Shown here piece after piece: positions 2,339-27,247 of a DNA stretch of 32,000 bases. The position numbers and the translations under genes are program-made. Location of the stretch: the NCBI GenBank assembly GCA_000147015.1, contig CP002161.1:176565-208564 (forward strand), in the 5' to 3' direction. Source of the stretch: Candidatus Saccharimonadota bacterium. Its GTDB lineage: Bacteria > Pseudomonadota > Gammaproteobacteria > Burkholderiales > Burkholderiaceae. Position 1 is the first letter of the stretch; each line of letters starts with the position of its first letter. Under the pieces are notes generated by a model that did not search any database, had not been told where the DNA came from, and saw only the letters and a program-made list of their open reading frames with translations.

Positions 2339-3642
2339 AAAGTATAAATACAATATTACTTTTAGATAATAAATATAAATGAAAATTAAAAAATGAAATT
2401 ATTTATTAAATAAAAATTATTTTATATATAAAAGATTAAAAATAGAAATATTATGATTTAAAAATATAATATAAAATTTTTTAAAAAAGAAAATTTATAA
2501 AAAAATAATAAATTTTTAAATAATATATTTAAAAAACTTTAAAATTATGATTCAATAAAAATAAAAAGAAAATATAATAAAATATAACATAAAATAAATA
2601 GAATATTGAATTAAAAATAAAATAAAAAATAAAGAAATAAATAAATATTCTGAATTTATACATTTTGAATGTATATCAGATGATATAAATAATATAACTT
2701 ATATTAAAATAATAAAAGAAATAATAAAAAATAATATATCCTAGTTTAAAAATAATTATAAATAAATTAATAATTATATCATATAAATATTCAAAAATAA
2801 TTATGTTATAAATATTCATAAGTAAAAGACTACTCCTATTAGTTTAGATAAAGAATTTTCTATTTTTATTTATATAATAAAAATACAATTAAAAAAATTA
2901 TTAAATATAAAAATATTAGGAAAATTAAATAATTTTGGAAATTTTAATACAAAATATTTTATAAATAATAAATTTAAATGATTAAAATTTATTAAAAAAT
3001 TTATAGAAAAAAATTAAAATTAAAATATAATTATTATCAAATAAATTTGCATGATTATATATTAAAATATTTAATTTAATTCATTTTATTAATATAATAT
3101 TAATAAATTTAAATAAAAATATATGACATTATATATCAATAGAATATTTAAAACAAAAAAATATTTTAAAAATAGATTAATTATTAATTCTCAATAAAGT
3201 TAATTCAATAAATTTTGAAAACTTAAAAAGAAATTTACTTTTATTAAATTCATTATTTAAATTTTTTTTTGAAAAATTACCAATTTCTAAATTACAAAGA
3301 TATTTAAGTTATTCTACTATATTAAAAAATATAAATATTTCAATAAATTATAGTTATATTTTACTTTTAAATGGTTTAAAAAATATAATAAATAAAAAAA
3401 TAAATAAAAAATAAAAATCTTGAGCAATATTGTCTTAACCAATTCAAACTATAATGAAATATTATAAAATAAAAAATTCTTATGAAAAATTAAAAATTTT
3501 AGCAAGAGGAAAAAATTTTTAAAAAAGATATTAAAATAATTATAAATAATTTAAATAACCAAATATAATAAAAAATAAAATTTTAAAATTAAAACCTATA
3601 AATTATAAAGGAATATCAAATTTTTTATCTATTAATATATAA
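2332..3642 (+). pseudogene. purB: Adenylosuccinate lyase (purB) relic, colinear but full of stops and frame changes
   Basis: Colinear similarity to PurB:
- LLDNKY (cf PVDGRY).
- EFIHFECISDDINNITY at 2652-2702 (cf EFIHFACTSEDINNLSH).
- IKILGKLNNFGNFN at 2907-2948 (cf VEILGKINGAVGNYN).
- NKVNSINFEN...KLPISKLQRYLSYSTILKN at 3187-3411 (cf HKVNPIDFEN...KLPVSRWQRDLTDSTVLRN).
- YEKLKILARGK (cf YEKLKELTRGK).
The first in-frame TAA is at 2407-2409. The frame differs between 2332, 2430-2948 and 3187-3642. There are six in-frame TAA in the last 152 codons (3412, 3436, 3520, 3532, 3547, 3556). Confidence 0.88.
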
Positions 3643-3709
3643 AAAATAAATATTATTATATATTTTATAAAATATATATAACAACATTAATAAAATTTAA
3701 ATTATAAAA

Positions 3710-5217: not shown

Positions 5218-6669
5218 TTATTTAAATAAAAAATTTAATTTAAAAATAGAAAAATTATAAAATATATTAAATTTTTTGTTAATTTTAAAATTATATTTAT
5301 AATTATAAAAATTATTTAAAAATAAATTATTATTTATATTTTTAATATTTCATAATTTTAAATATTTATTAATATTAAAATAATTTAATAAATATTTGTA
5401 ATAAAATAATATTGAATAATTTATATTATAATTATAGTTAAATATATTTATTACTAAAAGATTTAATTTATGAAAATAAAATTTATTATATATTTTTTTT
5501 TTTAAATATATATTTTTTGTTTTTTCTATAATAGTCTGAATATTATATTTTCAAGAAATTTTTATTAATTTAAATATTTTTTTTAATTCTAAATATTTTA
5601 ATTTATTTAAATTATAAAAATTATTTTTTTTAAATATATTTCCTAAAATTAAACTTACATTATATTTTTTAATTATTTTACAAATATTTTTAAATTTTTT
5701 AAATAAAAAAAATTCTTTATTATTTATAAAACATCATTTTAAAATTATAGAACCTTCTCTTGAAATATTATTATTATATTTCTTAATAAAATATGGAATA
5801 TATTTTAAAGTTAAACCAAAATAAAAAATGAAACAATCAATTCCATTAATTGATTGTTTTAATATTATTTTTTTAAATATTTTTCAATTTATTTTTTTTA
5901 TTTTTCAATTACATTTTTCTAAAGTTTCATAAATTGGTATAGTTACAATAGGTATATGATTATTTTTAATAATTAAATTTCTTATTTTTTTAATATTTTT
6001 ATTAAAATATAAAAAAATTATTAAATTATTATTTAATTTAATTGATATAATTAATTTTTCTAATTTTTTAAAAATATTATAATTTATATTATAATTTTGT
6101 ATATTAAAATTTATTTTAAATAAAAAATTTTTACCTATAATAATAGGTTGTATTTGATTATGATTAATATTACAAGGTATTATAGCTAAACCTTTATATA
6201 TTTTTTTTCTTATATATTCTGGATTTTTAATTAATATTTTTTTATTAGTAAAATTTTTTTTAATATTTATTATTTTTAATAAGTTTAAATATTTTATATA
6301 TTTTTTTTTATATATATTTTCTTTTATTGATATATATTCCATTTCACAACTTATAATTCCTAATTTAGCATAATAAATTTGCGTTATATTTTTTTTATAA
6401 TTAATATTTTTTCTGTTTAAAATTCAATTTTTTAATAATGGAGGTAAACCTAAATTAAAATTTATATTATAATCATTTTTAATGTAATATAATAAACTAT
6501 TATAAATATAAGGTATATAATTTTTTAAATTATAATTTAAAATTTTAATTATTGGAACATTTATATTATATAAATTTCCTTTTATATATCTTTTTATATA
6601 ACTAAAATTTTTAGATATTTTTTTTATTTTTTTTTTAAAATAAAAAATATCATTATTTATTAAAAACAT
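5218..6669 (-). CDS. thiC: ThiC-like protein (HMP-P synthase homolog); ORF intact, catalytic motifs eroded
   Basis: 483 codons were hand-checked as open under table 4, with TGA at 6424, 5905, 5884, 5725, 5551 and 5350. Clear ThiC colinearity: YYAKLGIISCEMEYISIKEN, GLAIIPCNINH, PIVTIPIYETLEK, GIDCFIFYFG, REGSIILKWC, YNVSLILG, ISWKYNIQTII. EGPGH is replaced by EKTKN (5512-5526). The last 100 codons (5221-5520) contain no Cys, so there is no CX2CX4C cluster motif. Confidence 0.75.
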
Positions 6670-9336: not shown

Positions 9337-10011
9337 TTAAATATTAATCTTTTTTATTTTTTTAATAAATATATTTAAAGATTTTTTAATAATTTTTTTT
9401 GGTTTTAAAATTCCATTTGTTTTTATATAAATTTTTAAATCTTCATATTTTTTTTTTATTATTTTTTTTTTAATTTTAAAAAAAAATTTTTTAACAGGTG
9501 TATAATTTGTATCTAAGTATATAACTATTTTTTTTTTTTCTTTATTATAATATTTAAATTTTTTTTTTTCATTATTATTAATATAACCCTTTCCTTTTTT
9601 AACTTTTATTAAAATATTTAATTTAGTTTTTATAATTGCATTAGCTATTAAATGACTAGGGTTTAAAATTTTAATATTTTTATTTAATGTTTTAATATTA
9701 TAAGCATATATTGGACCTAAAAAATAATTTTTTAAAAAAAAAGTAGTTTTATTATTTTTTATTTTAAATATTACATTTTTAATATTTAAAACAATATCAA
9801 TAATATCTTCTTTAATTCCTTTTATATATGAAATTTCATTTTTAATATTTTTAAATATTATTTTATAAACACAAAAACCTTTTATTTGATTTAAAGATAT
9901 TTTTTTAATAAAATTAGCAATAATATTTGCAATACCATTTTTTAAATTTTTTAAATAAAATAAAGAATAATTTATTCCTATTTTTTTTTCTATAAATTTA
10001 TTAATTTTCAT
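9337..10011 (-). CDS. rpoA: DNA-directed RNA polymerase alpha subunit, N-terminal domain only
   Basis: 224 aa. GIANIIANFIKKISL..., GIKEDIIDIVLNIKN and IKTNGILKPKKIIKKSLNIFIKK match the alpha NTD (cf [23 protein letters not shown]). A genuine TAA at 9337-9339 follows immediately. Position is between rpsD and rplQ. Confidence 0.85.
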   Translation of the reverse strand: MKINKFIEKKIGINYSLFYLKNLKNGIANIIANFIKKISLNQIKGFCVYKIIFKNIKNEISYIKGIKEDIIDIVLNIKNVIFKIKNNKTTFFLKNYFLGPIYAYNIKTLNKNIKILNPSHLIANAIIKTKLNILIKVKKGKGYINNNEKKKFKYYNKEKKKIVIYLDTNYTPVKKFFFKIKKKIIKKKYEDLKIYIKTNGILKPKKIIKKSLNIFIKKIKKINI

Positions 10012-16450: not shown

Positions 16451-16697
16451 TATTTATTATATCTTTTAAAATTCAAAATTTTTTTTTAGAAATAGGTTTA
16501 CATGAAATAAAACTAACAATATTATTTAATTTAGCAATTTCATATTCGTCGTGAACTAAAATTTTTTTTTTTTTAAAAAAAAATTTTTTATATAAATAAT
16601 GTTTTTTAAGAATTTTTACTAAAACAATTATAGTTTTTTTATTTTTAATAGATAAAACTTTACCAAAAAAAATTTTTTTATTTTTATTTTTATTCAT
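16431..16697 (-). CDS. rpsQ: 30S ribosomal protein S17
   Basis: The track ORF continues through TGA at 16473-16475 (SKKKFWILKDII, cf SKTKSWTLVRVV) to TAA at 16431-16433, overlapping the rplN start by 20 nt. Confidence 0.9.
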
Positions 16698-18047: not shown

Positions 18048-18329
18048 TTATTTTTTTATATTTTTTTTATCTTTTTTTTGTATTGAATGACCTCTAAAAA
18101 TACGAGTAGGAGAAAATTCTCCTAATTTATGTCCCACCATATTTTCTGTTATATAAACTGCTATATGTTTTTTACCATTATGTACTAAAAAAGTAACTCC
18201 TATAAAATCAGGAATTATAGTAGAACTTCTAGATCATGTTTTTATAATTACCTTTTCATTAAAATTATTTTTTACTTTTTTTATTAATTTATAATTACAA
18301 TAAATTCCTTTTTTAAAAGATTTTGTCAT
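18048..18329 (-). CDS. rpsS: 30S ribosomal protein S19
   Basis: 93 aa (TGA at 18234-18236). [53 protein letters not shown] matches S19. Not in the track. Confidence 0.95.
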
Positions 18330-19149
18330 TTTTATTATTTATAATCATATTATTAGAAATTTTTTTTTTATTTCTTGTTTTTTTACCTTTGGTTTTTTTT
18401 CCTCAAGGAGTTACTGGATGTCTACCACCAGATGTTCTACCTTCACCACCACCATGAGGATGATCAATAGGATTCATAGCAACACCTCTAACAGTAGGTC
18501 TTATTCCTAAATTTCTTTTTATTCCTGCTTTTCCAAGTTTTATTAAATTATGTTTTTCATTACCTATTTCACCTATAGTAGCAAAACAATTATTATTTAT
18601 TCTTCTTATTTCATTAGATTTTAAACGAACTTGAGTATATTTTTTTTCTCTAGATATTATTAAAGCACTAGAACCAGCACTTCTTGCTATTTGTGCTCCT
18701 TTAAATGGTAATAATTCTAAACAATGTATTAAAGTACCTAAGGGTATATTTTTTATTAATAAATTATTTCCTATTTTAATAGGAGTTTTATAATTACTAA
18801 TAATTTCATCATTTATATTTAAATTTTTAGGATGTAAAATATATTTTTTTTTTCCATTTAAATAATAAATTAAAGCTATATTACAATTTCTATTAGGATC
18901 ATATTCTATTCTTTTTACATAACCTTTTATTCCATATTCATTTCTTTTAAAATCTATAATTCTATAATATCTTTTATGTTGACCTCCTTTATGTCTTGTT
19001 GTTATTCTTCCCATATTATTTCTGCCAGATTTTTTTTTTTTTTTTTTTAATAAAATAGATAATGGTCTTCCTTTATATAAATTTTTATTTAAAATCTTAA
19101 TAACATTTCTTCTTCCTGGTGAAGTAGGTTTAGGTTTATAAATTATCAT
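18313..19149 (-). CDS. rplB: 50S ribosomal protein L2
   Basis: The track ORF continues through TGA at 18403-18405 ([19 protein letters not shown], cf [19 protein letters not shown]) to TAA at 18313-18315, overlapping rpsS by 17 nt. It contains an A19 tract (19030-19048). Confidence 0.95.
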
Positions 19150-19474
19150 ATTTTTTTAATATTTTTCAAAAAATTAAATATACTTTCATTATCTTTAAAA
19201 GTTAATATAACTTTTTTAAAATTTTTTTTTTTTATTAAATTATTTTTAAAATAATTTTTTTTAACTTTACCTTTTTTATTAATAATATTTATTGATTTTA
19301 TATTTATATTAAATTTAAATTTTAAAAATTCTTTTATTATTTTTTTATTATATTTTTTATTTATATTAAAAAAGTTATTTTTTTAAAATTTTCATTTAAA
19401 AAAGTTGTTTTTTCAGTTTTAATTTTTTTTTTAAAAATACTAATTAAATTATTATTTTTTAAAAAATTAATCAT
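19143..19474 (-). CDS. rplW: 50S ribosomal protein L23, reading frame broken by a 1-nt deficit in an A7 tract
   Basis: The N-terminal part [32 protein letters not shown] (from ATG 19472-19474) ends at TAA 19361-19363. The C-terminal part (K)[41 protein letters not shown]...[16 protein letters not shown] is in the other frame, from 19382 down to TAA 19143-19145. Both halves align to L23 (PHVSEKAS...[42 protein letters not shown]). The length is 332 nt, not a multiple of 3. Confidence 0.8.
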
Positions 19475-19475
19475 T

Positions 19476-20102
19476 TTAAATATTTAATCATTTTTGAATT
19501 TTATATAAAGTATTTTCCATTAAAATTATTTTTTGAAAATTTATTAAAGAAATAGGATTTATTTTATTAATATATATAAAAAAAATATTATATAAATTTT
19601 TAAAAGAATATAAAATATTAAAATTTAATTTATCTAAAATAAACAATGATGATTTTTTATATGTAATTTTATTTATTTTTTTTAAAATATTTTTTGTTTT
19701 AAAATTATCAATTAAAAAATTATTTAATATTAATAATCTATTTTCTCTATTTAATTGAGATAATATTGAACTTATAGAAATTTTATACATTTTTTTATTA
19801 ATTTTTTTTCTATAATTTTCATTAGAAGTATTAGGAAATATTTTACCACCTCCTCTTCATAAAGGAGAAGATATATTACCAACTCTTGCTCTACCTGTAC
19901 CTTTTTGTTTTCATAATTTTTTTTTATTATGTTTTACTTCTGATCTATTTTTTTGTTTACTAATAATTTTTCTATTATTTGATAAATAAGAAATTATAAC
20001 TTGATGTATTAAAGATAAATTATATGGATAATTAAATATATTATTTAATACTTTTATATTATATTTTTTTTTTTTTTTTATATTTAAAATTTTTAATTTC
20101 AT
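19476..20102 (-). CDS. rplD: 50S ribosomal protein L4
   Basis: Two track ORFs are in one frame, joined across TGA at 19911-19913 and 19857-19859 (hand-checked). [30 protein letters not shown]...KKMYKISISSILS matches L4. It reads through TGA at 19488 to TAA at 19476-19478. Confidence 0.95.
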
Positions 20103-20105
20103 TTT

Positions 20106-20714
20106 TTAATATATAAAAACAAAATTGTTTTTAAATCCCGGTATAGATCCTTTAATTCATAATAAATTATTTTTATTATCTATTTTTAATATTTCTAAAT
20201 TTCTAATAGTACAATTTTTATTTCCAAGTTGACCACACATTTTCTTTCCTTTAAAAACTCTACCAGGATCTTGACACATTCCAACTGAACCTGGAGATTT
20301 ATGAGATCTAGAATTACCATGACTTGCTCTTCCTGAAGAAAAATTATGCCTTTTAATAGTTCCTGAAAAACCTTTACCTATAGATTTTCCTTTTATACTT
20401 ACTTTTTGATTTAAATTAAATATATTAATTTTTATTCTTTCTCCTAAATTAAATTTAGAATATCTTTTATTTTTAAATTCTTTTATAATATAATTATATT
20501 TTGTTTTAGATTTATAAAAATGCCCTATTAAAGGTTTTTTCATATTAGAAGAAATTTTATTTTTTCCATATGAAATTTGTATAGAAAAATATTTATCTTT
20601 TTTAATATTTTTTATTTGAGTTACAAAATTATTTGAAACATCAATTATAGTAACTGGTATCATAGAACCATTTTTATTATATAAACAAGACATACCTATT
20701 TTTTTTCCTATCAT
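20106..20714 (-). CDS. rplC: 50S ribosomal protein L3
   Basis: MIGKKIGMS...GKGFSGTIKRHNFSSGRASHGNSRSHKSPGSVG..DPGRVFKGKKMCGQLG matches L3. It reads through TGA at 20157-20159 (LLWIKGSIPG) to TAA at 20106-20108. Confidence 0.95.
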
Positions 20715-20715
20715 T

Positions 20716-21039
20716 TTATATTAATTTTAATTTTATTTCTAAACCAGTAAAATTTAAATTTAAATTTTTAATGATATTTAAAATATTTATTTTTTTATTA
20801 TTTAATATATATAAAAATCTTTTATGAGTTCTAATTTCTAATTGATCTCTAGATTTTTTATCAATATGCGGTGACCTTAATAAATTAAATCTTTCTATTT
20901 TTGTAGGAAGGAATACTTCACTAATTAAAATTATATTATTAAATTTTAAAATTTTTTTTAATTCTATTATATATTTTTTTATTATTTTAAAATTAAAAGA
21001 TTTAATTTTTAATAAATATTTATTTTTTGAAAATAACAT
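20716..21039 (-). CDS. rpsJ: 30S ribosomal protein S10
   Basis: [26 protein letters not shown] matches [26 protein letters not shown]. Confidence 0.95.
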
Positions 21040-21040
21040 A

Positions 21041-22231
21041 TTATTCTATTATTTTAGTAACTATACCAGCTCCAACTGTTTTTCCTCCTTCTCTAATAGC
21101 AAATCTTAATCCTTCTTCCATAGCAATAGGAGAAATTAAAGTAGAATTAATAATAACATTATCTCCAGGTAATACCATTTCTTTATCTTTTTGTAATTCT
21201 ATTATACCTGTTACATCAGTAGTTCTAAAATAAAATTGAGGTCTATAATTATTAAAAAAAGGAGTATGTCTTCCTCCTTCTTCTTTTGATAAAACATATA
21301 TTTTTGCAGTAAATTTTTTATAAGGTTTAATAGAATTAGGTTTTACTAATACTTGTCCTCTTTCTACTTCTTCTCTTTTTATACCTCTTAATAAAATACC
21401 AACATTATCTCCTGCTTCTCCTTGATCTAATAGTTTTCTAAACATTTCTATACCAGTACAAATAGTTTTTTTTGTTTCTTTTATACCTACAATTTCTATT
21501 TCTTCACCTATTTTTATTAAACCTCTTTCTATTCTTCCTGTAACAACAGTACCTCTTCCAGAAATAGAAAATACATCTTCTACAGGCATTAAAAATGATC
21601 CTTCTGTTATTCTTTTTGGTGTAGGTATATAATTATCAATAGCTTTTGCTAATTTTAATATTGATTTTTCACCTAATTCATTTTTATTTCCTTCTACAGC
21701 TAATTTTGCTGAACCTCTTATTATAGGTATTTTATCACCTGGAAAATCATATTTTGTTAATAATTCTCTTATTTCCATTTCTACTAATTCTATTAATTCA
21801 TTATCATCAACTAAATCTGTTTTATTTAAATAAACTACTATATATGGTACACCAACTTGTCTAGATAATAATATATGTTCTCTAGTTTGAGGCATTGGAC
21901 CATCTACAGCAGAACAAACTAATATAGCACCATCCATTTGAGCAGCACCAGTTATCATATTTTTAATATAGTCCGCATGTCCTGGACAATCAACATGAGC
22001 ATAATGTCTTTTTTCTGTTTCATATTCAACATGTGCTGTATTTATTGTTATACCTCTAGCTTTTTCTTCTGGAGCAGCATCTATTTGATCATAAGCTTTA
22101 GCTTCACCTCCATATTTTTTAGATAATACCATTGTAATAGCAGATGTTAATGTAGTTTTACCATGATCAACATGCCCAATAGTACCTATATTTATATGAG
22201 GTTTGTTTCTTTCATATTTTATTTTAGACAT
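21041..22231 (-). CDS. tuf: Elongation factor Tu
   Basis: 396 aa, highly conserved. Motifs: [48 protein letters not shown]. It is visibly more G+C-rich than its surroundings. Confidence 0.99.
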
Positions 22232-22248
22232 TTTAATTTATTTTAAAA

Positions 22249-24348
22249 TTATTTTTTTATTTTTATAATTTTATCTAATATATTTTTAGGTAATTTAGAA
22301 TATTCTAAAAAATTCATTGTATAATTAGCTCTACCTTGAGTATTAGATCTTAATGAAGTAGAATAACCAAAAGTTTCTGATAAAGGTATTTTTATTTTTA
22401 TTAATTTACATAAATTATTAGATACTTCTTGCATATCTAAAATAATACCTCTTCTTGAAGAAATTTCTGATATTACATTACCAGCGTATATTTCTGGTGT
22501 TTCAACTTCCATATACATTATTGGTTCTAATACTATAGGTTTAGACATTAAACATCCTTTTTTAAAAGCAATAGATGCTGCTATTTTAAATGCATTTTCT
22601 GAAGAATCAACTTCATGATACGAACCATATATTAAATTTACTTTAATATCTACAACTTTATAACCTAATAATATTCCTGAATTTAAAGATTCTAAAATTC
22701 CTTTTTCTATAGGAGAAATAAATTCTTTAGGAATTGCTCCACCTTTTATAGAATTTACAAATTTAAATCCCATACCTTTTTTTAAAGGTTCTAATTTTAA
22801 TATAACATGACCATATTGTCCTCTTCCTCCTGATTGTTTAATAAATTTACCTTCAGCTTTTTCACATATTTTACTTATAGTTTCTCTATATGCAACTTGA
22901 GGTTTTCCTATTTTAACATTTATATTATATTCTCTTTTAATTCTATCTATTATAATTTCTAAATGCAATTCACCCATTCCAGAAATTATTGTTTGTCCTG
23001 ATTCATTATCAAATCTAGTATTAAAAGATGGATCTTCTTGTATTAATTTATTTAAAGCTATGTTTAATTTTTCTTGTTCTGATTTTGAAGAAACTTCTAT
23101 AGATTGAGAAATAACTGTTTCTGGAAATTTTATTTTTTCTAAAATTATTGGATTTTTAAAATCACATAAAGTATCACCTGTATTTATATCTTTTAAACCA
23201 ATTGCAGCGGCAATATCTCCTGCTTTAACTTTTTTTATTTCTTTTCTTTGATTTGCATGCATTTGTAATATTCTACCTAATTTTTCTTTTTTTTTTTTAA
23301 TAGAATTATATATTATATCACCGCTTTTTATTTTTCCAGAATATACTCTAAAAAAAATTAGTTGTCCAACAAAAGAATCATTCATTATTTTAAATGCTAA
23401 TGCTGAAAAGCTTTCATTTATATCTATTTTTCTTTTTATAATCTTATTATTTTCATTAACACCTTTTATATATTTAATATCTAATGGAGATGGTAAATAT
23501 TCTAATATTGCGTCTAATAAAGGTTGAATACATTTATTTTTAAAAGCAGAGCCACATAATAAAGGGATCATTTTTCCTTCTATTGTTTTTTTTCTAAGTT
23601 CTTTTTTTATTTCTTTTTCTGTAATTTTTTTTTTTTCTAAATATTTATTCAATAAATAATCAGAATCTTCTATAATTAATTCAATCATTTTTTTTCTTCA
23701 AATTTTTAATTTTTTATTATATTTCTTAGATACTTTTTTAACAGTATATTTCATACCATTAGTATTATTTTTTCATAAAATAATTTTTTTTTTAATTAAA
23801 TCTATTATACCTTTAAATTTATTTTCTTTTCCTATAGGTAATTGTATAGGAATTGGATTTGAATTTAATTTATTCTTTATTTGTTTATAAACTTTATAAA
23901 AATTAGCTCCTATTCTATCCATTTTATTAATAAATGCTATTCTAGGAATTTTATATTTATTTGCTTGTTTTCAAACAGTTTCCGATTGAGATTGTACACC
24001 TCCTACTGCACAATATAACATACATAATCCATCTAATACTCTCATAGATCTTTCAACTTCTATTGTAAAATCAACATGTCCTGGTGTATCTATAATATTT
24101 ATTCTATTTTTTTCAAAATTATTTTTCATACCACTTCAAAAACATGTTGTGCAAGCTGAAGTTATAGTTATTCCTCTTTCTTGTTCTTGTTTCATTCAAT
24201 CCATTGTAGTATTACCATCATGAACTTCTCCTAATTTATGATTTATACCTGTAAAATATAAAATTCTTTCAGTAAGAGTAGTTTTTCCAGCATCTATATG
24301 CGCAGAAATTCCTATATTTCTATAATTATTTATTTTTATATTATTCAT
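22249..24348 (-). CDS. fusA: Elongation factor G
   Basis: 699 codons. The region upstream of the track ORF was hand-checked as open under table 4. N-terminus: [34 protein letters not shown]...[16 protein letters not shown]...[17 protein letters not shown]...NKMDR. TGA at 24196-24198 is the conserved W. Confidence 0.98.
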
Positions 24349-24354
24349 AATAAA

Positions 24355-24822
24355 TTAAAAATTAAAATTTGAAAAAGCTTTATTTGATTCGGCCATTTTA
24401 TATATTTCTATTTTTTTATTTATTGAAGAACCTTTATTTTCGGAAGCATCTATTAATTCATTTGCTATTTTTATATATGTAAATCTTTCTTTTCTTTTTA
24501 AAGCAAATTTTTTAATTCATTTCATAGATAAACTGATTCTTCTATTTAAATTTACTTCTACTGGAATTTGATAATTAGAACCTCCTATTTTTTTATTTTT
24601 TATTTCTACTAATGGTTTACAATTTTCTATTGCTTTTAAAAATATTTTAATTGGATTTTTATTTTTTGATTTTATATAGTATAAAGCTTTATAAATTATT
24701 TTTTCTGATTTATTTTTTTTACCAGATAACATTAATATATTTATAAATTTAGATATTTCTAAATTATTAAATTTAATATCTGGTTTTATTTTTCTTTTAT
24801 TAAATTTTTTTTTTCTTGACAT
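24355..24822 (-). CDS. rpsG: 30S ribosomal protein S7
   Basis: [18 protein letters not shown]...[17 protein letters not shown]...[28 protein letters not shown]...[14 protein letters not shown]. It reads through TGA at 24517-24519 to TAA at 24355-24357. The start was chosen at ATG 24820-24822 by alignment; the track ORF starts 15 codons earlier. Confidence 0.92.
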
Positions 24823-25216
24823 CTTTATTATTTTTAATAATTTTATTTTTTTTTTTTTTAACTCCATATTTTGATCTTGATTTTTTTCTTTTTTTAACTC
24901 CTTTATTATCTAAAACACCTCTTATAATATGATATCTTACTCCTGGTAAATCTTTAACTCTTCCTCCTCTTATTAATACTATACTATGTTCTTGTAATTC
25001 ATGTCCTTCTCCTCCTATATAACATATTACTTCAAAACCATTATTTAATTTTACTTTTGCTACTTTTCTTAAAGCTGAATTAGGTTTTTTAGGTGTAGTT
25101 GTATATACTTTTGTACATATTCCTCTTTTTTGGGGATTTTTTTGTAATGCTGGAGTTTTAGTTTTAATTTTAATTTTTTTTCTAGGTTTTTTTATTAATT
25201 GATTTATAGTTGTCAT
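24800..25216 (-). CDS. rpsL: 30S ribosomal protein S12
   Basis: [12 protein letters not shown]...[62 protein letters not shown] matches S12. A Lys-rich C-terminal tail overlaps the rpsG start by 23 nt. Confidence 0.97.
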
Positions 25217-25711: not shown

Positions 25712-27247
25712 ATGAGTAATAGTTATATAAATTATGCAATAAATGTAATATCTAATAGAGCATTACCTGATATAATAGATGGTTTAAAACCAGTACATAG
25801 AAGAATATTATATACTATGTATAAAATAAAAAATAATTATAAAAATAATTTTATAAAATGTGCAAGAATTGTAGGAGAAGTAATGGGTAAATATCATCCT
25901 CATGGAGATAATTCTATATATGATGCTTTAGTAAGAATGGCTCAAAATTTTTCTTTAAAATATACATTAATTAAAGGACAAGGAAATTTTGGTTCTATAG
26001 ATGGAGATAATGCTGCTGCAATGAGATATACAGAATGTAAATTAAATAAAATATCCAATGAATTTTTTCATGATATAAATAAAAATACTGTTAAATTTAT
26101 AAATAATTATGATAATAAAGAAAAAGAACCATTAGTATTACCATGTAGAATACCCAATTTATTAATTAATGGTAGTTATGGAATAGCTGTAGGTATGTCA
26201 ACAAATATACCTCCACATAATTTTACAGATTCTATAAATACAGCTATATACTTATTATTATTTTCAGAATGTAAAATTAAAGATTTAATTAAAATTTTAA
26301 AAGCACCAGATTTTCCTACAGGAGGAAATATAATAAAAATATCAAAACTTCATAATGCATATTATTATGGAAAAGGAAGTGTTACAATAAATTCTAAATT
26401 TATTTTTGAAAAAATAAATAAAAAAACTAATATTATTATAACAGAAATACCTTATCAAATAAATAAAAAAAAAATATTAGAACAAATAATAAAATTAATA
26501 AAAAATAAAAAAATAAATTTTATTAATAATTTAAAAGATGAATCAAATAAATTAGGAATTAGAATAGTAATAGAATTAAAGAAAAATTTAAATAAAAATA
26601 AAATTTTAAAAATTTTATTTAAAAAAACTTCTTTACAACATACAATAAATATTAATATTATTGCCTTAATAAAAAATATTCCTAAAAAATTAAATTTAAA
26701 AAAAATATTAATATATTTTATAAAATATAGAAAAAAATTAATAATTAAAAAATTAAAATTTATATTAAAAAAATTAAAAAAAAAAAAATATTTATTAGAA
26801 GGTTTTGTAGTAGTAATAAATAATATAAATAAATTTATAAAAATAGTCAAAAAATCAAAAAATAATATTGAGGCTATAAAAAATATAACATCAAATAATT
26901 GAAAATTATTTATAAAATTAAAAATAATAAATTTTAATAAAAAAAATAAGAAATATATTAAAAATATAAAAAAGAAAATAAAAATACCTTATACAAAAAA
27001 ATACAAAATTTCAGTTATACAATCAAAATTAGTATTAAAATTAAGATTAAATAAAATAATAAAATTAGAAAGTTATAAAATTTTTAAAAAATATAAATTA
27101 ATAATAATTAAAATATTAATATATTTTATTATATTAAAAAAGAAAAATAAAATTTATGATGTAATATTTGAAGAATTAAATTATATAAAATATAATACAA
27201 AAATTAAAAATAAAGATATAAGATTAACAAATATAAATAAAAAATAA
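25712..27247 (+). CDS. gyrA: DNA gyrase subunit A, N-terminal (breakage-reunion plus coiled-coil) part only
   Basis: 511 codons were hand-checked as open, with TGA at 26900-26902. Motifs: SYINYAINVISNRALPDIIDGLKPVHRRILYTM, GKYHPHGDNSIYDALVRMAQ, GQGNFGSIDGDNAAAMRYTE (active-site Tyr). It ends ...IFEELNYIKYNTKIKNKDIRLTNINKK (cf VIREELELVREQFGDKRRTEI) followed by TAA at 27245-27247. The start may lie upstream at a non-ATG codon. Confidence 0.92.

Follow-up and report, generated by a model that had tools for sequence, protein, structure and literature searches.

Frameshifting insertions and deletions (indels) that fall in homonucleotide repeats of 3–8 nucleotides (nt) are bypassed in Escherichia coli, giving functional protein (PMC3812077), and in the insect endosymbionts Buchnera and Blochmannia 12–50% of the transcripts of frameshifted genes are corrected (PMC5009743; PMC3017870). 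Single indels in homopolymer zones, in genes that are otherwise intact, are well described for AT-rich insect symbionts. A different fate, namely loss, is known from the ribosomal tunnel exit. This exit and the trigger-factor site are surrounded by the proteins uL23, uL24 and uL29, and in tiny genomes uL24, uL29 and trigger factor belong to the ribosomal components that are lost most often (PMC7782861). Here, we analysed rplW, the gene for uL23 (L23), in a stretch of 32,000 nt of contig CP002161.1 (positions 176,565 to 208,564, hereafter the window), and we found that in Candidatus Zinderia insecticola CARI this gene very probably carries a genuine frameshift in the DNA. Of interest are the identity of the affected gene and the shortness of the runs in which the break lies; the most likely outcomes are ordinary gene loss or a rescue mechanism that has already been described.

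The source of the window was established from its rplB product, which shows 100% identity to that of Zinderia CARI at NCBI, from a genome of 208,564 bp. Candidatus Zinderia insecticola is a betaproteobacterial symbiont of the spittlebug Clastoptera arizonana, with a genomic G+C content of 13.5% and UGA recoded to tryptophan (PMC2953269). The G+C content of the window is 14.1% and the genome is ~86% A+T. With the standard bacterial code many ribosomal protein genes of the window look broken, whereas with TGA read as Trp (code 4) all are whole except rplW: rplD, rplC, rpsS and rpsC become full length, and rplB reads ...HPVTPWGKKTKG..., with ...HPVTPWG read through a TGA. Among the ~40 genes of the window, rplW is the only one that is broken in code 4.

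The reading frame of rplW is broken once, in a short A/T zone

One continuous frame for uL23 was not found. The 0 frame runs from the ATG through the 5' segment, in which alignment to relatives identifies the conserved (S/T)EK motif, here KTEK, and then meets a TAA, the remainder of the gene lying in the -1 frame (Table 1). The 3' segment ends with ...FLKNIKKIW, the last codon of which is a TGA (19148-19146) that overlaps the start of rplB and encodes Trp in code 4. The end of the gene at the following TAA holds only if this TGA is Trp, a reading adopted because rplB in the same genome reads TGA as Trp. The two frames can be connected within 19 nt only, limited on the 5' side by a -1-frame TAA (19385-19383) and on the 3' side by the 0-frame TAA, and the coding strand of this join zone is AAAAA-TAAC-TTTTTT-AATA, with 13 of the 19 bases assigned to the A7 or the T6 run. 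Outside it the gene is open, as expected for a single indel in an A/T homopolymer zone, of which the exact base cannot be fixed.

When the two frames are joined, the resulting protein of ~110 residues matches the Pfam family PF00276 (Ribosomal_L23) with 41.1–47.8 bits over profile positions 2-84 of 86, the curated cut-off being 30.8 bits. The 3' part alone reaches 32.6 bits (profile positions 22-84), and the 37-residue stub has no Pfam match. An open stretch of 79 codons was obtained in none of 20,000 shuffles of the segment and in none of 4,796 off-frame windows taken from neighbouring genes. Since the open length of the 3' part is beyond chance and the joined protein matches Pfam, the split frame is more than a coincidence.

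The position of the gene is that of uL23: on the minus strand the window carries rpsL-rpsG-fusA-tuf followed by the S10, spc and alpha operons, and rplW lies between rplD and rplB in the S10 operon, an order common to the five relatives that we compared. This position and the Pfam match bear out the identification as rplW made in an earlier note on this DNA. The single break that it described, its start and stop coordinates and the colinearity of both halves with L23 were likewise recovered, as was the exact plus-strand T7 at 19378-19384. The zone that it gave for the junction (19364-19384) is nearly the same as the one delimited here. It had also remarked that the A19 of rplB is in frame, which is the case (plus-strand T19 from 19030), and that the break of rplW stands out, which agrees with its being the only one in the window.

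Table 1. Positions of the rplW segments, the runs of the join zone and neighbouring genes in the window, with the scores of the possible frame repairs
Feature	Position	Strand	PF00276 (bits)	Five-relative profile (bits)	Description
rplW 5' segment	19364..19474	minus			37 codons from ATG 19474-19472; then 0-frame TAA 19363-19361
rplW 3' segment	19146..19382	minus			79 codons in the -1 frame; then TAA 19145-19143
Join zone	19364..19382	minus			sole stretch able to connect both frames (19 nt)
A7 run	19378..19384	minus (coding)			plus-strand T7; run length exact
T6 run and next A	19367..19373	minus			T6 = 19368-19373; in-frame U_UUU_UUA slippery heptamer, then AUA UAA
rplD (uL4)	19476..20102	minus			intact; stop one base ahead of the rplW ATG
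rplB (uL2)	18313..19149	minus			intact; start ATG 19149-19147; holds an in-frame A19
rplP stop / rpsQ start overlap	16690..16697	minus			AATAATGAATAA; no room for rpmC (uL29)
A8 repair			41.2	21.7	lowest in the five-relative profile
T7 repair			42.2	25.2	...FKKITFFNIN...
Tandem-slip product at T6			41.1	24.5	...KKITFLNIN...
A5 repair			43.0	25.1	
T4 repair			47.8	28.9	...KKITFNIN...

The same break is found in a second read set

The earlier note had listed three scenarios, namely a homopolymer error of sequencing or assembly, a rescue by slippage and a dying gene, and these are indeed the relevant ones. The first of them now appears very improbable. It would mean that one base of the A or the T run is missing from the assembly and that rplW is intact in the true genome, and the history of the genome gives some room for it: the DNA sequenced in 2010 came from multiple displacement amplification, 454 and Illumina contigs were merged with phrap (PMC2953269), and miscalled homopolymers are the classic 454 error. 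The core of that genome, however, consists of eight high-coverage Illumina/velvet contigs (exp_cov set to 255), which were combined with contigs from 454 Titanium, Sanger sequencing being used for closure (PMC2953269). Moreover, the Logan contig SRR29904085_6378 (6,972 bp), assembled from separately accessioned reads, is 100% identical to positions 18120-25091 of the window, agrees at every long run (T19, T16, T14, thus over runs of 14–19 bases) and carries the same 37-codon stub as a called gene. SRR29904085 was accessioned ~14 years after the genome, and its independence from the 2010 libraries, which could not be verified, is assumed here. In the 39 other genes (29.6 kb of coding sequence) we counted 238 A runs of at least 7, of which 79 are of at least 9 and the longest is A19, and 79 T runs of at least 6; all of them are in frame. 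A miscall confined to one of the shortest runs would be odd, because these 317 comparable or longer runs break no frame. No contig with a repaired frame was found in a collection of 15 billion proteins. A mixed genome population, in which a polyploid Zinderia would draw uL23 from minority copies with an intact rplW and the assembled majority would be frameshifted, is improbable as well. Consensus assemblies report the majority allele and length variants of homopolymers arise readily, which would make such a mixture conceivable, and complementing genome lineages are known in the insect symbiont Hodgkinia. No repaired variant, however, was called on any contig in the collection.

The break is absent from relatives and the gene has not decayed

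For a comparison with other lineages we took the closest rplB homologues in the collections; these share only 68–70% identity with CARI and comprise the Zinderia of Aphrophora alni (OZ026462.1) and Logan contigs from other runs. All five of the relatives that were fetched possess an intact L23 gene, of 105–111 amino acids (aa), between rplD and rplB. The frameshift, identical in the two read sets of the same symbiont and absent from these five relatives, is thus specific to the CARI lineage. We also scanned genome contigs for a closer Zinderia: a query with rplD gave none, and a query with the L23 alignment gave, among the matches listed, only unrelated bacteria (such as Vibrio and Bacteroidales). 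The collections contain no closer lineage from which the event could be dated.

Apart from the break, rplW looks like its neighbours. Its divergence ratio (CARI to relative over relative to relative) is 1.6–1.7, compared with 1.57–4.3 for 12 other ribosomal protein genes, and its 116 codons contain no second lesion, even though 50 of the 1,044 possible single substitutions would make a stop. Neither the several lesions nor the faster divergence of an eroding pseudogene are thus seen, and until recently, if not to this day, the gene has evolved under ordinary constraint. The break is either young or leaky, in a gene that is otherwise intact and still sits in a tightly packed S10 operon.

The T run is favoured as the site of the lesion

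The earlier note had proposed that one extra A restores a full-length protein. This A8 repair does pass the Pfam cut-off, but it is not the sole repair and scores worst against the profile of the five relatives. Ranked by Pfam and by a local hidden Markov model, the repairs order as T4 > T7 ~ A5 > A8 (Table 1). When frame 0 is kept up to the T run, the protein reads ...KKITF..., which aligns with ...NKIIVF... and ...NKKIIF... of relatives and with ...SNTIVL... of E. coli. These residues form the first beta-strand, and the A8 reading places NN there. The codon usage points in the same direction. The lone C at 19374 is a second-position base (ACT, Thr) in frame 0 and a third-position base (AAC) in the A8 reading; C occupies 1.2% of third versus 11% of second positions, and of the Asn codons 2.9% are AAC, so that this base adds 1.9 bits for frame 0 up to the T run. 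Together, these comparisons favour the T run over A7 roughly tenfold, which is suggestive, not decisive, as the readings differ in just three or four codons.

The T4 repair also removes the one-residue difference in length from all relatives. Since it fits their length, a gain of two bases in the T run explains the break no less well than the loss of one, and on balance the lesion amounts to one base lost, or two gained, within the join zone.

The 5' part of rplW contains two copies of an 11-nt string, AACTTTTTTAA, at 19396-19406 and 19366-19376 of the minus strand, 30 nt apart. The second copy contains the T6 of the join zone; given the low complexity of the sequence, the repetition may be due to chance.

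Leaky decoding may still supply uL23

The reading that we favour, by inference and with a probability of about 45%, is that functional uL23 is still produced despite the frameshift. The missing -1 shift would be supplied by unprogrammed, low-level, error-prone decoding. By one route, the RNA polymerase would insert one base at A7 or at U6. By another, the shift would take place on the ribosome, either by a tandem -1 slip on U_UUU_UUA or by a P-site slip at the A run, where tRNA-Lys would move back from AAA to A_AA. Most ribosomes would stop after 37 codons and a minority would complete the protein of ~110 residues. The heptamer U_UUU_UUA is in frame in rplW (19373-19367), and the correct frame is reached from it by a -1 shift. 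The peptide at the junction differs between the routes, being NNFF for an event in the A run, ITFF for an extra U and ITFL for the tandem slip.

The E. coli and endosymbiont cases cited above speak for such a bypass. The precedent of slippage in Buchnera and Blochmannia, which the earlier note had invoked, is real; the tracts involved there, however, have ~9–12 bases, and tracts of at least 9 are those shown to slip in endosymbionts, whereas A7 and T6 are shorter. In E. coli, slippage of the RNA polymerase needs at least 7 T, or more A (PMC6260861), so that both runs are at or below the threshold. With such short runs the rescue would be weak, unless the machinery of Zinderia slips unusually readily.

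Several further observations weigh against continued production of uL23. No stimulatory RNA structure was found: the 98 nt downstream of the site fold with -1.2 kcal/mol (z = +1.45), a value equalled or bettered by 191 of 200 shuffles. No G-rich, Shine-Dalgarno-like element is visible upstream of the site. The presence of a heptamer means little, as 30 T_TTT_TTA and 200 A_AAA_AAA are in frame in the 29.6 kb of coding sequence. The frameshift is common to no other sampled lineage and thus gives no sign of having been maintained over time. A ribosomal protein is required stoichiometrically, for which a few per cent of product might be too little. The gene for uL29 is gone from its slot in the operon, as would be expected if selection on this region of the ribosome were relaxed. 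To these points is added that SRR29904085 could not be established as independent of the 2010 libraries.

Programmed -1 frameshifting was considered and rejected, as there is neither a stimulator nor conservation among homologues and the heptamer is a common one.

The strongest form of the proposal, in which uL23, a near-universal tunnel-exit protein that binds rRNA, is supplied only through error-prone decoding at A7 or U6 by a Zinderia machinery that slips far more readily than that of E. coli, is rather unlikely. If true, a machinery that slips at A7 or U6 must also read the in-frame A12–A19 tracts of rplB, rplO, rplD, rpsL and other essential genes.

Long in-frame poly(A) tracts are indeed a feature of the window. 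We observed A19 in rplB (19030-19048), A17 and A14 in rplO, A16 in rplD (20064-20079) and in rplS, and A14 in rpsL, rpsG and rplF, together with another tract at 24846-24859; those covered by the second assembly have the same lengths there. In E. coli, poly(A) tracts of this length should cause heavy slippage of the RNA polymerase and sliding of the ribosome.

Possible recent gene death and erosion of the tunnel exit

The main alternative is that rplW was recently pseudogenised, no functional uL23 being made, and that CARI ribosomes work without it, or with a substitute supplied by the host, in the course of an ongoing erosion of the tunnel exit. We regard this as a possibility to be taken seriously, with the odds leaning somewhat against it. 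Calling rplW essential, as the earlier note did, is too strong: L23 can be deleted in Bacillus subtilis, at a cost in growth (bioRxiv 10.1101/300103), and in CARI the operon slot of uL29, which partners uL23 where trigger factor docks, is already empty. The loss of ribosomal proteins is said to set in at ~200 kb (PMC11020763), and the present genome has 208 kb. Death of the gene is also supported by the runs, which have insufficient length for efficient slippage, and by the lack of a stimulator after the site, and neither a full-length nor a C-terminal L23 figures in any public annotation of this genome. The state of the gene speaks against its death: no second lesion has arisen among its 116 codons, where indel-prone runs are abundant too, its divergence does not exceed that of its neighbours, and uL23 is absent from the ribosomal proteins listed as frequently lost in 214 small genomes (PMC7782861). 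This lack of decay is also compatible with a very recent event. The gene could, in addition, have become a split one, with termination at the UAA (19363-19361), reinitiation at the overlapping AUA (19364-19362, -1 frame) and assembly of both fragments on the ribosome. The overlap of stop and AUA (AUAUAA) resembles the stop-start overlaps for coupling found elsewhere in the operon; however, ATG, GTG and TTG are all missing from the -1 frame until close to its end, all other genes of the window have an ATG near the start of their open frame, and the cut would fall inside the first beta-strand, judged by the alignment to E. coli L23 and the structure of that protein. Among the explanations considered, we give this one the least credit.

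The 3' part as a separate short gene was rejected, for it has no usable start codon.

The tunnel-exit genes of the relatives were compared at their slots. In CARI, rpmC (uL29) is not in its conserved operon slot, which is where it was looked for (Table 1). An L29 of 67–70 aa is kept at that slot in both relatives checked (L002, 6654-6866; L003, 4883-5086). L003, a Zinderia-like symbiont from run SRR21069056, has a spacer of only 68 nt between rplN and rplE (5717-5784), so that rplX (uL24) is missing there. CARI keeps an L24 of 102 aa (Pfam, 49.3 bits) and the symbiont of A. alni one of 80 aa. From these gene contents, different tunnel-exit proteins appear to be in the course of loss in different lineages.

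Prior record and significance

The lesion of rplW is not mentioned in the searchable literature, and the genome paper makes no mention of frameshifts or pseudogenes (PMC2953269). The repaired L23 of 110 aa had no match at E <= 0.001 in a set of 5.8 billion proteins, being too diverged and too low in complexity. When eight candidate products (the A8 and T7 repairs as well as C-terminal fragments beginning at alternative starts) were looked up by exact match, the only find was the 37-aa stub (UniParc UPI00031A3B57). It follows from these searches that the deposited proteins of this genome include no L23. With a public proteome lacking L23, surveys of presence and absence will score a loss and overlook an almost intact gene.

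If uL23 is still made, the locus would offer a simple read-out of the sloppiness of expression in one of the most AT-rich cellular genomes, and the routes could be distinguished by the peptide at the junction, NNFFNINK indicating an event in the A run, ITFFNINK an extra U in the messenger RNA and ITFLNINK a tandem slip of the ribosome. If it is not made, CARI would have a natural bacterial ribosome that misses both uL29 and uL23 at the exit of the nascent chain, which bears on the erosion proposed at the ~200-kb 'tipping point'.

Other features of the window

Between mnmA and lysS, positions 2339-3709 form a stretch of 1.37 kb without an open frame longer than ~100 codons in any of the six frames (code 4). 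Its G+C content is ~9–10%; this is a large non-coding stretch for a genome of 208 kb and possibly a fully decayed gene. Scans of the window with Rfam and for tRNA genes gave no matches, including in this stretch.

Three proteins of the window are shortened or only partly recognisable. RpoA (9337-10011, minus strand) has 224 residues, with the N-terminal dimerisation and insert domains (PF01193, PF01000) and without the C-terminal domain. GyrA (25712-27247, plus strand), of 511 residues, consists of the N-terminal DNA_topoisoIV domain only (PF00521, profile positions 1-431 of 432); the repeats of the C-terminal beta-pinwheel are absent and ~140 nt are left before metE. A ThiC-like protein of 483 residues (5218-6669, minus strand) matches positions 1-263 of the 420-position radical-SAM ThiC profile, and its C-terminal third is unrecognisable.

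Comparison with known systems

Programmed -1 frameshifting, as in dnaX, in the IS3 family with A_AAA_AAG and in retroviruses with U_UUU_UUA (PMC5009743, PMC5737442), shares with rplW an in-frame U_UUU_UUA in the join zone. In rplW, in contrast, there is no stimulator, the shift is absent in homologues and the heptamer is common in the genome.

The bypass described for E. coli by Rockah-Shmuel et al. (2013, PMC3812077) concerns, as here, short repeats (3–8 bases), and the slippage, in transcription or in translation, is unprogrammed, as it would be in rplW. There, slippage gave enough full-length protein for function, and the indels were proposed to act as bridging intermediates in evolution. 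That system, however, is a laboratory drift experiment with an overexpressed methyltransferase needed in catalytic amounts, whereas uL23 is structural and stoichiometric.

The genes rescued by slippage in Buchnera and Blochmannia (Tamas et al. 2008, reviewed in PMC5009743; B. vafer, PMC3017870) resemble rplW in several respects: the genome is that of an obligate, AT-rich insect endosymbiont, a single indel lies in a homopolymer zone, and outside it the gene shows neither damage nor accelerated divergence. An information-processing gene is hit in both cases (dnaX, dnaG and pth in B. vafer, rplW here). They differ in that corrected transcripts were measured there, at 12–50%, on tracts of ~9–12 bases, whereas the runs here have 7 and 6 bases. 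Moreover, some of their frameshifts are conserved across populations or species, whereas the five relatives of CARI are intact.

The loss of tunnel-exit proteins in tiny genomes (Nikolaeva et al., PMC7782861) is the remaining parallel. CARI matches it in the size of its genome (~200 kb), in the empty slot of uL29, with an empty slot of uL24 in a relative, and in the contact of uL23 with the same trigger-factor site. It departs from it in that uL23 is not frequently lost and in that rplW is broken, but not eroded.

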